DNA of 63,372 bases, filler included, from Octopus bimaculoides (lineage: Eukaryota): NCBI RefSeq assembly GCF_001194135.2. It is 10 parts of 9 records of this genome, joined end to end, with 100 filler letters (N's around TTAATTAATTAA, not from the genome) between each part and the next. Parts side by side here need not be neighbours in the genome. Positions count along the whole stretch, not along the records: positions 1 to 3,437 come from NW_026433666.1; positions 3,538 to 13,299 come from NC_068997.1; positions 13,400 to 18,246 come from NW_026421248.1; positions 18,347 to 21,113 come from NC_068991.1; positions 21,214 to 25,656 come from NW_026347442.1; positions 25,757 to 34,950 come from NC_069003.1; positions 35,051 to 39,640 come from NC_068996.1; positions 39,741 to 55,132 come from NC_068995.1; 2 more parts are not named here. One strand, written 5' to 3'. The number at the start of each line of letters is the position of its first letter. Position 1 is the first letter of the stretch. Positions 178 through 49,154 of the stretch are shown piece by piece. The notes beneath the pieces are model-generated. The model ran no database searches. It was not told where the DNA came from and worked only from the letters and a program-made list of their open reading frames with translations. Both the position numbers and the translations under genes were made by a program.

Positions 178-222
178 CCGATGAAGGGATACGTTGAATT
201 TTCCCTGAAACAGCTGTATAAC
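178..222 (+). ncRNA. Degenerate type I hammerhead ribozyme motif (5' of PLE)
   Basis: CCGATGA (U4C variant of CUGANGA), stem II AGGGA/TCCCT (185-189/202-206), GAAA, perfect palindrome ACAGCTGT, GUA triplet. Stem I does not pair. Confidence 0.55.
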
Positions 223-474
223 ATTCTACATAAAATGTAAATTTATTTATGCCATTGGTCTCTTTATCTTTTTTTTTTTATATATATACACACGCTAATT
301 CACGACCCATGTTATATTCCCCATTCATGTTGCAACCACATCTGGGGCAAAACTAGTCGGTATACAGCACTTACTCGGTATTACCTGTATCATTCGGGTC
401 TGGTTGACTCCATTACCCTTCATAACCTTTATTATTTGCTATTATTAACACTTATAACAGGTAACACTTCAATA

Positions 475-3025
475 ATGGATAAAGAATTCCTTGGCTTCTC
501 CCTTAAAGACACTCCTATTCCTTCACAAAAAGCTTTCACTATACTCCTTCTTGCTAAAACTAAGGACCTCATCCGAAGAATGAGATGGAATGCTTTCTTC
601 CACGACAACCAAAAATATAAGAATGACATAAGCAAAAACAATTTCAACCTCACATCATATAAGAATCCTCCACACACCCCCACATCTCGAAAAATTCGAA
701 GCGGATATGATCGATCTAATCAGAAATATTAAATTCTCAAAATACAAATCCCCCTTTCAAAGAAGACTATCGCATACCATAAAACGGATTATTACATCCC
801 CTAAATTACACGTATTTTCAGATAAAACAGGAAATATGTATCCCATTACCATAGAGGAATACAATAAATTCATTAGGAACGAGCTCAACAAATCCTACAA
901 GCTAGCATCAACATCTGCTTTAAATGATATCAACACCATCCACTGCAAACTCATGAGGAAACTACACGTGGACGACAGAACAGAACCATATTGCCCAGCA
1001 CCTCCACACTTCAACCTCAAAGATCACAAGAAGGATTTAATCACCAAAGCTTCAATACGCCTAATATGCCCTACCGAATCCGACCTCGGAAGGGTTAGCA
1101 AAAACATTCTGGACAAAATTATACCTGTTGTCAAAGAAAAATTAAATGCAAATCTACGGTACCATACCGGGGAGGTCATTACATGGTTTCACACCTTAGA
1201 TAACAAAAACTCATTTTCATTCCTTCAATTCGACATAAATAACGACTACTCCTGTATCTCTCCTAAACTTTTAAATAAGGCTATTCTTTTCGCTAGGAAC
1301 TTTACTAACATAACCCTACTAGAAATCAACATAATACTTAAAGCACGCAAAACACTTATATCCTTTGAAACAAACTCTCGTGCCGAGCTAACCAACATAA
1401 TAGTAACTGTAACAACTTATTCGATGTAACAATGGGATCATCCGATTCCGCTCAGGTCACTGACTTAGTTGGGTTATATATACTTCACCAACTGCACTCA
1501 CATTTCCCTAAAATCCGAGGGGGTCTGTATAGGGACAACGCCTTACTACTTACCAAGGCCATTAATAAATCTTCTCTGGAAAGGACTAGAAAATATCTAC
1601 ACAAATTCTTCTCTAATCTAAATCTATCCATCACATTTGAAAACGCATATAAAACTGCTAACTTTCTAGATGTTACTCTAAACTTATCAAACTCACAATA
1701 CTCCCCCTATCATAAACCTAACCAATACCTGAAATACCTCAACGTACACTCCAATCACCACAAGTCTACTTTCGATAACATAGTCAAGGGTATTTCAACC
1801 CACATNNNNNNNNNNNNNNNNNNNNNNNNNNNNNNNNNNNNNNNNNNNNNNNNNNNNNNNNNNNNNNNNNNNNNNNNNNNNNNNNNNNNNNNNNNNNNNN
1901 NNNNNNNNNNNNNNNNNNNNNNNNNNNNNNNNNNNNNNNNNNNNNNNNNNNNNNNNNNNNNNNNNNNNNNNNNNNNNNNNNNNNNNNNNNNNNNNNNNNN
2001 NNNNNNNNNNNNNNNNNNNNNNNNNNNNNNNNNNNNNNNNNNNNNNNNNNNNNNNNNNNNNNNNNNNNNNNNNNNNNNNNNNNNNNNNNNNNNNNNNNNN
2101 NNNNNNNNNNNNNNNNNNNNNNNNNNNNNNNNNNNNNNNNNNNNNNNNNNNNNNNNNNNNNNNNNNNNNNNNNNNNNNNNNNNNNNNNNNNNNNNNNNNN
2201 NNNNNNNNNNNNNNNNNNNNNNNNNNNNNNNNNNATAGCAACTTATAAACTCTCACTCTATTATCAAAACTCACACAATTATAACTATGGTAATACTAGT
2301 ACTCAGCGCACACATATACCCAACATAGACATTCACACACGTACATCTAGCACGGATACTCGTACACTTGAACACGACCATAATATATCCCAGCCCACTA
2401 GTATACTATATCTTCTAATAATAGCAATAGAGGTAATAATAACTATAACAGTAACGACTGCATTGATCTAGATTCCTCTACATCCTCACATAACCTATCC
2501 TCCGACAATATCACCTCATCCACCACAGAACACAACCCCCAAGCTTCATCTACTTGTAACTGTTGCTCCGGGACAATCTGCCCGCTACAAACACATTGTG
2601 TAAGATACAACGTAATATGCAAATGCACTGTCACTAATCTGCTACATAACTCTACAGCTACATACATAGGTTCAACTAAAAATTTCAAGCAACGTTATGC
2701 AGCTCACCTTCACTCTTTTAGATATGACAAGCACAGCAAATCTACAACACTAGCCAACCACATTCGCCACCTCAAAAACACAAATATCCAGTATACATTA
2801 ACACGGTCCATTCTGGACTCAGGAATTCCATACCAAGGCCAGCGCTTTAATTGCAAACTTTGCTTGAAGGAGGCGTTCCATATTTTAAAATACAATTCCC
2901 CCACACTACTTAATAGGTATAATGAAGCACTTAGCACCTGTAATCACTGTTTCTTCCATACGTTCAAATCCTATCACAGACACAAATGCATAAATGACCA
3001 CACAACGTACTCCCACGATTATTAG
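475..3025 (+). pseudogene. PLE polyprotein (reverse transcriptase + GIY-YIG endonuclease), disrupted
   Basis: N-terminal KDTPIPSQKAF...LIRRMRWNAFF; RT motifs FLQFDINNDY, MGSSDSAQVTDLVGLYIL, GLYRDN (YRDD-like), NFLDVTLNL, PYHKPN, YLNVHSNH. After the gap, frame 2555-3025 reads CNCCSGTICPLQTHC..NVICKCTV..TYIGSTKNFKQRYAAH..SF..CKLCLKE..LLNR. Frameshift near 720, stop at 1427-1429, N gap at 1806-2235. Confidence 0.9.
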
Positions 3026-3559
3026 TTAGCTATTAGGTTCCCCTACTACCATCCTTCAAATAAGTTTCAGCTCTATTTATAGATTAACTCTACTACCTTT
3101 CTCTCTTATTATACATTTTTCCTTTTTATTACTATTTTTCGAATAGATATATTCTTAATAATTCTCCAATATCCACAAAATGACTTTCTAAAATGAACTT
3201 CCATTATGCAGCTGAGGCTGTTCTGTTGATATCAATTTACCAGTTTATTCTTCAACTAAGAGGAAAATAAAACAATATACAAACACATATGACATAGTGT
3301 GTCATATCTGTAATTAAAATTAAAAAGGACATCTAGTGACCGAAGAAGGGACAATGTCTTACAGTTGTTACAGCCTAGAGGTGACACACCTCATTCTATC
3401 TATATAACTCCAGTAAGCTGGAGTAATTGATAGATGANNNNNNNNNNNNNNNNNNNNNNNNNNNNNNNNNNNNNNNNNNNNTTAATTAATTAANNNNNNN
3501 NNNNNNNNNNNNNNNNNNNNNNNNNNNNNNNNNNNNNAATAATAATAATAATAATAATA

Positions 3560-3703
3560 ATCCCTCCCACTATATGCTCAGGGCCTGGAATTTGTGGGAC
3601 GGGAACTAGTCGATTACATCGACCCCAGTGTTTCACTGGTACTTGCTTTATCGACCCCGAAAGGATGAAAGGCAAAGTCGACCTCGGCGGAATTTGAACT
3701 CAG
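3560..3703 (-). mobile_element. tRNA-derived SINE family B, 5'-truncated, flanked by (AAT)n
   Basis: Shares GAGTTCAAATTCCGCCGAGGTCGACTTTGCCTTTCATCCTTTCGGGGTCGATAAA with more than 10 other copies in the window. Confidence 0.85.
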
Positions 3704-46990: not shown

Positions 46991-48266
46991 CTATCTATCT
47001 ATCTATCTATCTATCTATCTATCTATTTATCTATATATATGTATATACATATATATATAGCTGGGCAGCTAATTTCCCCAACTAATTTCCCAAATATATC
47101 TATATACATATATATATGTGTATGCGTGTGTGTGTGTATGTGCGTGTGTGTGTGTGTGTGTGTGTGCGTGTGTGTATGTGTAACGACAACCACTAAGTGG
47201 ACAGTTAATGTGCTAGAAGATCACATGTAATACCAAACCGTATGCGGGCAAGACAGTGAAAATTACATAAATAGAACCTTATTATTCGTGGACGGTTTCC
47301 AAATTAACACTCTCTTACCGAAAATATCTGTTTCTCTTCAGCACGATTTGTAAGGAAATCATAATTCTCAGAATCTTATACAAGTTGTTCACCCCTAGAG
47401 GCGAACGCGTATGTGGTTCTGCTAATTACAACTTAATGGTAAAAATCCAATGCCTTGTTTTGGCGCGCTAATTCCGAAAATCTCTCTGCAGAAAATGGTT
47501 ACTGCATCGCATATATCTTGGTTATGGTTAATCAAATTAAAACATCGTAAAAATCAGATATTAATTAATATCGATTTATTACCAGGAAGCCAGCACATTG
47601 AAAGAATCAGAGAGATTCAGAAAAAAAGTATCTGAGATCTCAGGGGATTAATGTATATGTGTATATAACCACGACCACTAAGTGGACAGTTAATGTGCTA
47701 GAAGAAGATCACATGTAATGTGTCTACTCAGACCTAATAGTTCGCAAAAGAAATTCAGTGAAATACCAAACCGAATGCGGGCAAGACAGTGAAAATAGTG
47801 GTCACTGTTACCCACAATGATGTTCCCATAGTGACTGTGACGTAATGATACCAAATCGCATTTTACTAGTAGATGGTGATAATCCGCATAATGAAAACCT
47901 TGTGTTACGTTACATTTTCTAGACTTTCATTCAGTCTCTACATACGCTTGGCTCACGTATCTCTATGAAATCAACCAGCAGAATAACCTGCAAGGTAACA
48001 GGATCAACAGTATTCAACATTTATAAGTTATTGGCATTTAACGCAACGGTGGGTGGGTGTTTACTTACATGAGTGAGACAGCTTTTCGATTCCCATTGGG
48101 CAACTAGCATCTACCTAGTTGGGTATTATATAACTTGTAATTTGTAGTCAATGTATACTCCTTAGTTGCATGGAGATTATTATGAGCTGTCTGATGGGAA
48201 GTTAAAAGTCACTGATAATGATAAAAATTACCCGGAATTTTTTTTTTTTTTTTTTTGCCATATGCG

Positions 48267-48284
48267 ACACCTGATGAAGGCTGG
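48267..48284 (+). ncRNA. Hammerhead 5' half truncated by an assembly gap (same family as 49109)
   Basis: ACAC-CTGATGA-AGGCTGG then Ns. Confidence 0.55.
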
Positions 48285-49108
48285 NNNNNNNNNNGTGTGT
48301 GTGTGTGTGTGTGTGTGTGTGTGTGTGTGTGTGTGTGTGTGTGTGTGTGTGCGTGTGTGTGTGTGTGTGATTTCTTTGATTTCTTTTTCTTTTCTTTCTT
48401 TTTTTTTGTTTTTAGTCGAGCAGATTCTTATAGAAATACCTTTGTATCATTCTTCTACTACTTGAACAGTTCTGCTGAACTTTAGGTCTCTTAGTATGAA
48501 CTATTAGCTGGGTAATTACCTTCAAACATACAATAGCAGCAATGTGGTTGTATTGACACCACACAATACTTCTTCTTTGTACTCCTCTTCTAGAAGGAAC
48601 AAAAGCCATTTGTATTGCTTATTGCATATATTATGAATAAAATCTCGATACGCACAATAGTTTTCCATATATAATTTTTAACGCATTTTTATATTATCAA
48701 TAAACTAGAAAGGAACCTGGATGCGATGTCAGGCTGCCTTTTCCTCCACTACTACTCGGTGCATTTAAATCATGCCTATAGTACAACATACTGTGTACTC
48801 TGTTTGCAATTATTCATCGACTAGATTGCAGAAACGCTGTCCCTATAGTGATCATCGTCTCGGGATAACTAGTGCCCTCTCCTTGCCAGTAGATCACCCA
48901 GTCCTTCTTTAGTGTAAACGAGTCTCCCAACAGCTATTCAATACTTACCCCCATGATTCTGAGTTCGATTCCAGGCAGTGACCTGAATAATAATAATAAT
49001 AATAATAATAATAATAATAATAATAATAATAATAATAATAATAATAATAATAACAACAACATCGAAAAATACCTTAGGAATGAGAACCCAGCTCTGAAAT
49101 TTCCCCAA

Positions 49109-49154
49109 AACACCTGATGAACGCTGGAGGGTATATCAGCCGAAACGTTGTGTT
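49109..49154 (+). ncRNA. Minimal type I hammerhead ribozyme
   Basis: AACAC-CTGATGA-A-CGCTG-GAGGGTATAT-CAGCC-GAAA-CG-TT-GTGTT: 5-bp stem I, palindromic ACGT stem III, GUU site after 49149. The base of stem II is a C:C mismatch here but G in the 48271 copy. Confidence 0.8.

Follow-up and report, generated by a model that had tools for sequence, protein, structure and literature searches.

Hammerhead ribozyme motifs in an Octopus bimaculoides sequence window as probable ends of several Penelope-like element families, one with a fixed U6 core

Our findings suggest that the hammerhead ribozyme motifs in a 63,372-nucleotide stretch of Octopus bimaculoides DNA (assembly GCF_001194135.2; hereafter the window, meaning the whole stretch that was analysed) are quite probably the hammerhead-bearing ends, or pseudo-long terminal repeats (pseudo-LTRs), of several unrelated families of Penelope-like elements (PLEs), lying as dispersed 5'-truncated or short copies in microsatellites. 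One of these families, named here after its motif at 20969, has a core in which A6 is replaced by a fixed U6, and in the same reading this core is likely weak or inactive. The window is gappy and microsatellite-rich (34% GC over all letters, 5568 N), and its repeats include short interspersed element (SINE)-like repeats together with Mariner and long interspersed element (LINE) remnants.

Hammerhead motifs were read from the sequence and sought with a descriptor of our own in three versions: strict-core, compact with one core mismatch permitted, and loose one-mismatch. The strict-core version gave two matches (21617 on the plus strand and 35176 on the minus strand), where 100 block shuffles yielded 0.11 on average and never two, and the compact version gave two (35176 and 20969, both minus strand) against 0.04 in 100 shuffles. 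The loose type I version was not significant (seven matches against a mean of 2.7 in 30 shuffles), and four of its seven matches (4660, 18692 and 57685 on the minus strand, 47486 on the plus strand), all within the shuffle range, were therefore discarded as noise. Descriptors for types II and III returned zero strict matches in the window, and two weak one-mismatch type II matches were discarded. An Rfam search of the window contained no hammerhead among its 131 matches, further Rfam searches likewise gave none, and monomer folding z-scores were unremarkable for four of the five motifs tested.

The initial annotation had described four well-formed type I hammerheads with unrelated flanks and a gap-truncated fifth. 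All four are present, at 20969 and 35176 on the minus strand and at 21617 and 49109 on the plus strand, and their flanks are mutually dissimilar by blastn, which supports its proposal of several ribozyme families in the window. The type I core CUGANGA / GAAA / UH, with stems I to III in type I order, is complete in 21617 and 35176, but the other two deviate, 20969 by A6U in its core and 49109 by the absence of G10.1. The motif at 21617-21736, well formed by descriptor, sequence and folding, has a 3-bp stem I (GAC/GUC), the canonical core CUGACGA at 21620, GAA-ACGUGCGU-A and, as stem II, a 97-nt hairpin (z = -3.8); it starts right at a (TACA)n/(TA)n run, and its cut is predicted after 21733. 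The minimal motif at 35176-35220, well formed by the descriptor, combines stem I CCA/UGG, the canonical core CUGAUGA at 35214, one extra G, a 6-bp stem II and GAA-AGAACU-C with stem III AGAACU, its cut being predicted after 35181. Read from the sequence, the minimal motif at 49109-49154 has a 5-bp stem I (AACAC/GUGUU), core CUGAUGA at 49114, an extra A, GAA-ACGU-U and GAAACGUU, with a cut predicted after 49149 and a (TAA)n run ending 60 nt upstream. The descriptor missed it because G10.1 is C in this copy (49122), where a C-C mismatch closes stem II. Words of 49063-49480 are present in runs labelled as five organisms, with small shares in organisms B-E; no RNA run appears among those listed for this stretch, which argues neither way. 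The truncated fifth motif is the 5' half of a sister copy (48267-48284, plus strand), alike at 17 of 18 bases and keeping G10.1, which an N gap cuts at 48285; three of the five copies have such a gap nearby.

A tiny palindromic or near-palindromic stem III had been ascribed to most motifs, and this holds for 20969 and 49109 (ACGU), for the relic at 178 and a half motif at 20767 (ACAGCUGU) and, as a near-palindrome, for 21617 (ACGUGCGU), but not for 35176. The marks of the minimal hammerhead ribozyme (min-HHR) of PLEs, namely an extra base between positions 9 and 10.1, a G10.1-C11.1 pair and a palindromic stem III, are all found in 20969; they are complete for 48267/49109 only when both copies are combined, 35176 is without the palindrome, and the extra base is missing from 21617 and 178. 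Enrichment of the motifs near microsatellites within the window is weak, because for 40% of positions the nearest microsatellite or gap is no more than 170 nt away.

The motif at 20969-21005 (minus strand), identified by descriptor and by read and contig mapping, is a minimal type I hammerhead with a 5-bp stem I (UCUUU/AAAGA), the core CUGUUGA at 21000, an extra A, a 4-bp stem II and GAA-ACGU-C, its cut being predicted after 20974. The substitution of A6 by U at 20997 was absent from the initial annotation. The motif sits in a copy of an abundant dispersed repeat (20879-21113, minus strand), which was the mapping target, at 80% likeness and with a variant threshold of 5%, for four of the 24 listed runs: two from the host, namely raw RNA (X21, of which about 6% was read) and DNA contigs (X2), and one set of contigs each from organism B (X11) and organism D (X13). 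These mappings cover one family of at least five. From the numbers mapped (3323 RNA reads out of 12.9 million; 8854 contigs of X2, 3768 of X11 and 81 of X13), the family is abundant, the summed depth not being a copy number. No variant row of 5% or more occurs at 20997 (U6) or 20996 (U7) in any of the four runs, which span three organisms, and the loose-end consensus of the X2 contigs likewise reads U6. Position N17 (20974) changes to U in 22% of RNA, 37% of X2 and 89% of X11, and to A in 10% of X13, with no G row; X13 also carries a one-base insertion in the stem II loop in 86% of its depth, which peaks on the ribozyme (20967-20998). Among the 37 positions of the ribozyme, one has DNA variants of 5% or more, compared with 17 of the 78 positions of the 3' flank (p = 0.011, Fisher test). 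Variants seen in RNA only, at 20976 and 20982 (12-13%), were not read as editing and probably come from one expressed locus. Copies of the family have a fixed 3' end at about 20880 beside (TA)n, with loose ends at 20891-20898 consisting of TA repeats, and their opposite end is ragged, that of the window copy meeting an N gap. A decayed sibling of the repeat was also observed at 15860-15950, whose minus strand keeps CUCGAAACG with the core missing.

The link to PLEs drawn in the initial annotation is borne out by a Hydra-clade open reading frame (ORF) in the window, by a relic whose stem III is that of published Hydra motifs, and by Neptune-type endonuclease sequence before two of eight distinct same-shaped loci in metagenomes. 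By profile search, hhalign and Pfam, the ORF at 475-3025 (plus strand) is assigned to a broken Hydra-clade PLE. Its reverse transcriptase (RT) piece retrieved one longer relative (45% identity), and this relative as query returned 150 listed proteins, 23 full-length ones of which were built into a profile hidden Markov model that matches 475-1800 and 2474-2977 of the window with E down to 4e-70; the Hydra-like profile scores far above a Neptune profile. The RT has DKT instead of DKG (SDKTG, in the translation of 632-1426), followed by a CxCX5C linker (CNCCSGTIC) and then, at the C-terminus, by a GIY-YIG nuclease region, for which hhalign gives 99.7% probability and Pfam a match below its cut-off (E 0.008). 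Both DKT and CxCX5C, present in 18 and 12 of the 23 full-length relatives, respectively, are given as Hydra-clade marks in the text of Craig et al. 2021 (PMC8557442). The copy contains frameshifts and an N gap (1806-2234) and, being broken, could not itself mobilize anything. A second PLE nuclease remnant was noted on the minus strand at 54340-54534 (Neptune profile E 1e-8 against Hydra E 1e-5), and no hammerhead was found behind it.

Two relics flank the Hydra ORF, at 178 and 3336, and their surroundings are not homologous. The first (174-222, plus strand), recognized from its sequence and from a stem III of the type tabulated in Craig 2021 File S2, has the core CCGAUGA (U4C), a stem II of 5 bp with A-U as its closing pair, and GAA-ACAGCUGU-A, in which A17 is at 218; its stem III ACAGCUGU is palindromic, and stem I is broken, with a decayed 3' strand. 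A short T/TA run follows, and the PLE start codon lies 257 nt beyond the predicted cut. The stem III ACAG..CUGU of this relic also stands in four of the 26 Hydra rows of File S2. At the second site (3340-3395), where 17 of 21 bases match 178, the plus strand carries a 5' half, CCGAAGA-AGGGAC (3340-3352), and the minus strand a 3' half (about 3352-3395) that resembles 178; this is possibly a PLE 3' end joined to an inverted truncated copy. The adjoining stretch 3243-3326 has a sister in opposite orientation at 59653-59760 (also given as 59656-59740), 73% alike and ending at an N gap. A third relic (24376-24416, plus strand), recognized from sequence and decayed, shows the core CCGAUGA and five of six stem II pairs and has lost the GAAA box. 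All three relics (178, 3340 and 24376) thus carry a CCGA core in which the normally invariant U4 is not kept, and they have CCGANGAAGG in common, seen three times against 0.13 expected (300 shuffles). An additional 3' half, GAAACAGCUGUAAG at 20767-20780 (plus strand) beside a microsatellite, was not among the motifs of the initial annotation; it matches 178 at 12 of 12 bases, with 0.013 expected per shuffle. As relics, 178, 3336 and 24376 are plausible, but the fourth one claimed (40733-40790, plus strand) is not distinguishable from chance: it fails the descriptor and is not confirmed, having only CUGAUGA (40746) and GAAAC, with no U16.1, no stem I and no valid stems.

A pattern of the 20969 shape, with position 6 left free, was run over metagenomes and gave nine loci, of which L004 and L005 are 99.7% identical, making eight distinct. 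Position 6 is A in eight of the nine and C in one, never U. In L007, a Neptune-type linker and nuclease end 190 nt before the motif on the same strand, and L004/L005 carry a weaker nuclease remnant on the same strand that ends about 95 nt before it (E 6e-5). Inverted motif pairs, described as a PLE trait by Cervera and De la Pena 2014 (PMC4209133), occur in L004/L005, L006 and L009. These loci support the type, not the family, of the 20969 motif. In viral contigs, no relative of the Hydra alignment was found, and neither was a 49109-type or a 178-type pattern.

Several observations weigh against the reading of the motifs as PLE ends with a maintained fold. No PLE ORF remnant was found beside the four main motifs with the Hydra and Neptune profiles, no Penelope/Poseidon, Nematis or Naiad profile having been run. 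Among the metagenome loci, an ORF remnant accompanies only two of the eight distinct ones, stem I reaches at least 3 bp in only two of nine, and none shares flanks with the window. The sequence after the Hydra ORF (3026-3437) is without similarity to 1-474, for which reason 178 is not shown to be the pseudo-LTR of that element itself; relic and ORF together fit two Hydra copies in succession, the relic being the end of the first. Within the 20969 family, the ribozyme is not better conserved than the 5' flank (1/37 against 7/95, p = 0.44, with thinner coverage there), a U4-to-A change reaches 4.8% in X2 and 5.8% in RNA, and no compensatory stem change occurs among variants of 5% or more, the variation falling on N17 and the stem II loop. 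Selection on the fold of the 20969 family is therefore suggested, not proven.

The fixed U6 touches the open question of the purpose of PLE hammerheads. In our reading the ribozyme of the U6 family is probably weak or dead, because single mutants in the CUGA turn of a type III hammerhead had low activity (PMC9901934) and the natural A6C hammerhead variant is slow, with low but detectable activity (PMC3088659). With U6 and U7, an extra helix with A14-G16.2 becomes possible (pair probability 0.7), giving a rod that is more stable than the open core by 2.4 kcal/mol. As a special explanation, locking of the core into this rod by U6 alone was rejected: in all nine outside loci and in 49109 the core of the monomer is buried as well, and since this is true of A6 motifs too, the rod does not single out U6. 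Minimal PLE hammerheads have been reported to cleave weakly in vitro and only as multimers (PMC4209133). For an anole PLE, the element's protein was required for cleavage, insertion in vitro was unimpaired in hammerhead mutants, and the hammerhead, which cleaves in vitro, left no RNA-seq trace (PMC11167929). Our analysis inclines us, by a modest degree of belief, to the view that cleavage has largely been lost in the U6 family and that the fold is kept, probably as an RNA signal recognized by a PLE protein. Protein- or dimer-assisted activity seems a less probable account, and pure hitch-hiking of a founder mutation is rated lower still. A bolder proposal, which we put forward tentatively and consider rather improbable, is that the family is a natural working U6 hammerhead in at least three related animals, cutting only after pairing through its palindrome into a dimer or on binding of PLE protein, and that the Hydra-type families separately fixed U4C; if true, the PLEs of this lineage would damp their ribozymes by core substitution and rely on protein as a switch. 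Should the U6 family cleave, current descriptors are too narrow for the allowed core and would overlook the entire family; should it not, a large PLE-type family has spread without cleavage, and its fold is likely a protein-binding signal. The family is thus a natural experiment, being very successful with an expectedly damaging core change, a fold that seems to be kept and N17 limited to C, U or A.

As the ends of PLE families, the motifs could have come to lie where they do through steps that we take from known PLE biology. A PLE protein would bind the element RNA near its hammerhead end, nick AT-rich DNA and reverse-transcribe; early stops of reverse transcription would leave only the 3' end carrying the hammerhead, so that solo motifs would far outnumber ORFs. 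The palindromic stem III would allow two motifs to cleave as a dimer. Solo motifs have been explained in this way before, by frequent 5' truncation and target-primed copying into AT-rich repeats (PMC4209133).

Two other accounts appear unlikely to about the same degree. In the first, the families would be true non-LTR retrozymes, that is, tandem non-coding units cut by their hammerheads, circularized and copied by a borrowed PLE RT. No ORF adjoins the four main motifs, the 20969 family is transcribed at the level given above and shows a few head-to-tail joints, and retrozymes co-occur with PLEs, from which they have been proposed to derive (PMC7229834; bioRxiv 10.64898/2026.07.22.740005). However, none of the motifs lies within a tandem array (0 of 92 Tandem Repeats Finder (TRF) rows, although arrays could be hidden in short-read gaps), and the joints amount to about 1 in 10,000 of the summed depth (depths of 238 and 59 in X2, 2 + 2 reads in RNA), with TA repeats or other letters between the copies. 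The RNA reads fall equally on both strands and 59% of them continue into unrelated sequence; in the roughly 6% of one RNA run that was read there is no pile-up of RNA ends and no seamless back-joint, although ordinary RNA-seq can miss circles and cut ends and the unit's far end lies beyond the stretch used for mapping. Overall, the RNA of this family looks like read-through of many dispersed copies. Moreover, the type I hammerheads of retrozymes are canonical (PMC7229834), unlike the window motifs, which are minimal and have PLE-type features and a stem I of 3-5 bp, and the 20969 family tested here has a damaged core. The circular or multimeric RNA envisaged in the initial annotation consequently receives no support, ordinary RNA-seq being a weak test of it.

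In the second account, some families, 49109/48267 above all, would be the ends of another class of retroelement with a captured hammerhead, either SINE-like or a LINE with a restriction-like endonuclease that targets (TAA)n. The position of 49109 behind its (TAA)n run speaks for this, as do remnants of LINEs next to (TAA)n or (TACA)n runs in the window and the lack of an adjacent PLE ORF. A GTTCGATTCC box, which we take to be B-box-like, is also present at 48940-48985, just upstream of the (TAA)n run before 49109. On the other side, ARAGORN found no tRNA, no similarity to the LINE remnants of the window was seen, and the shape of 49109 (extra A, the G-C closing pair of its sister, ACGU, U17) is the published PLE consensus (PMC4209133). 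Lastly, a chance origin of the motif matches from AT-rich repeat DNA is highly improbable, and although the missing Rfam match, the four of five monomer folds no stabler than shuffles and the loose descriptor's yield per shuffle would suit it, this reading is refuted for 20969, 21617, 35176 and 49109 by the strict and compact descriptor counts, by the existence of the sister copy at 48267 and by the 20969 motif being the best-retained part in the organism D run, varying at N17 and the stem II loop, and stands for 40733, which it fits.

Two further places in the window recall hammerheads. On the minus strand at 17860-17910, GAAAC-GCCGGUGU-U is followed 20 nt later by CUGAUGA, beginning at a TA repeat; either this hammerhead is truncated at its 5' side and has a 10-nt near-palindrome, or its parts are permuted, and it fails the type II descriptor. 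A direct repeat pair at 41764-41924 and 42260-42421 is 85% alike, and the start of this repeat resembles a decayed hammerhead (UGAUGAAGGA ... UCCGGAAAUCGG at 42254-42297). Among the other features, a decayed LINE with RT at 42700-45310 ends in (TACA)n, with similar tails at 30400-30800 and 39100-39270; its own tail looks like a restriction-like endonuclease. Mariner/Tc1-type remnants lie at 40925-41377 and 15943-16551 (a Mos1 helix-turn-helix match and an inverted 166-nt pair). At 8642-9298 a coiled-coil ORF shows a weak Tektin match (E 2e-4, below cut-off) and is interrupted near 9208 by a SINE-like repeat. The minus strand at 56672-57649 holds an uninterrupted frame of 326 codons for a divergent seven-transmembrane protein resembling rhodopsin-family G protein-coupled receptors (GPCRs), which has no Pfam match, one 89% relative, an Atlas feature score of 0.96 and a TM of about 0.75 to GPCR models. 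Gaps composed of 44 N, TTAATTAATTAA and 44 N recur in the window (e.g., 3438-3537) and are an assembly marker, not biology.

Compared with known systems, the window motifs share most with the min-HHRs of Cervera and De la Pena 2014 (PMC4209133), as described there: type I, an extra base after A9, G10.1-C11.1, a tiny palindromic stem III, and several sequence families per genome, most copies being solo and not near an ORF. All 56 motifs of their Fig. S3 have A at position 6 (CUGA or UUGA), in contrast to the fixed U6 of the 20969 family, and the window further differs from those motifs in its three CCGA relics and in the 97-nt stem II hairpin at 21617. With the Hydra clade of Craig et al. 2021 (PMC8557442 / bioRxiv 10.1101/2021.04.23.441226), as set out in that account, the similarities comprise DKT, CxCX5C, a C-terminal GIY-YIG, a length below 3 kb, (TA)n targets, a longer palindromic stem III and A or U at the cleavage site. 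File S2 of that study already includes an octopus Hydra family with a hammerhead; all 26 of its 26 Hydra rows start CUGA, whereas 178, 3340 and 24376 read CCGA, and the broken ORF at 475-3025 is, by eye, of a different family from the octopus consensus. Animal retrozymes (PMC7229834; Li et al. 2026, bioRxiv 10.64898/2026.07.22.740005) are likewise reported as type I hammerheads in transcribed non-coding repeats that co-occur with PLEs, but they are described as repeating in tandem, in units of about 170-400 nt, with hammerheads of the canonical kind and circular RNA in abundance, whereas in the window the copies are monomeric and dispersed, their motifs are minimal, and circles were not seen. 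A precedent for the natural substitution of a conserved core base is found in the main text of Perreault et al. 2011 (PMC3088659), with A6C and, in a viroid, U4C; these are single phage or viroid examples, while A6U is fixed here in an abundant animal repeat. Neither the 56 motifs of Fig. S3 nor the 34 rows of File S2 contain A6U, the Perreault 2011 main text does not mention it, and we did not find it described, although Lunse et al. 2016 (PLE hammerhead variants), Arkhipova et al. 2017 and the supplements of Li et al. may cover it; the main text of a 2026 octopus repeat annotation (PMC13282606) leaves ribozymes unmentioned. In summary, judged by their predicted shape the window motifs belong with the minimal hammerheads of PLEs, and, as solo minimal hammerheads from truncated PLEs are already published (Cervera 2014, Craig 2021), the new point set against the published portions compared here is the fixed U6 of the 20969 family.

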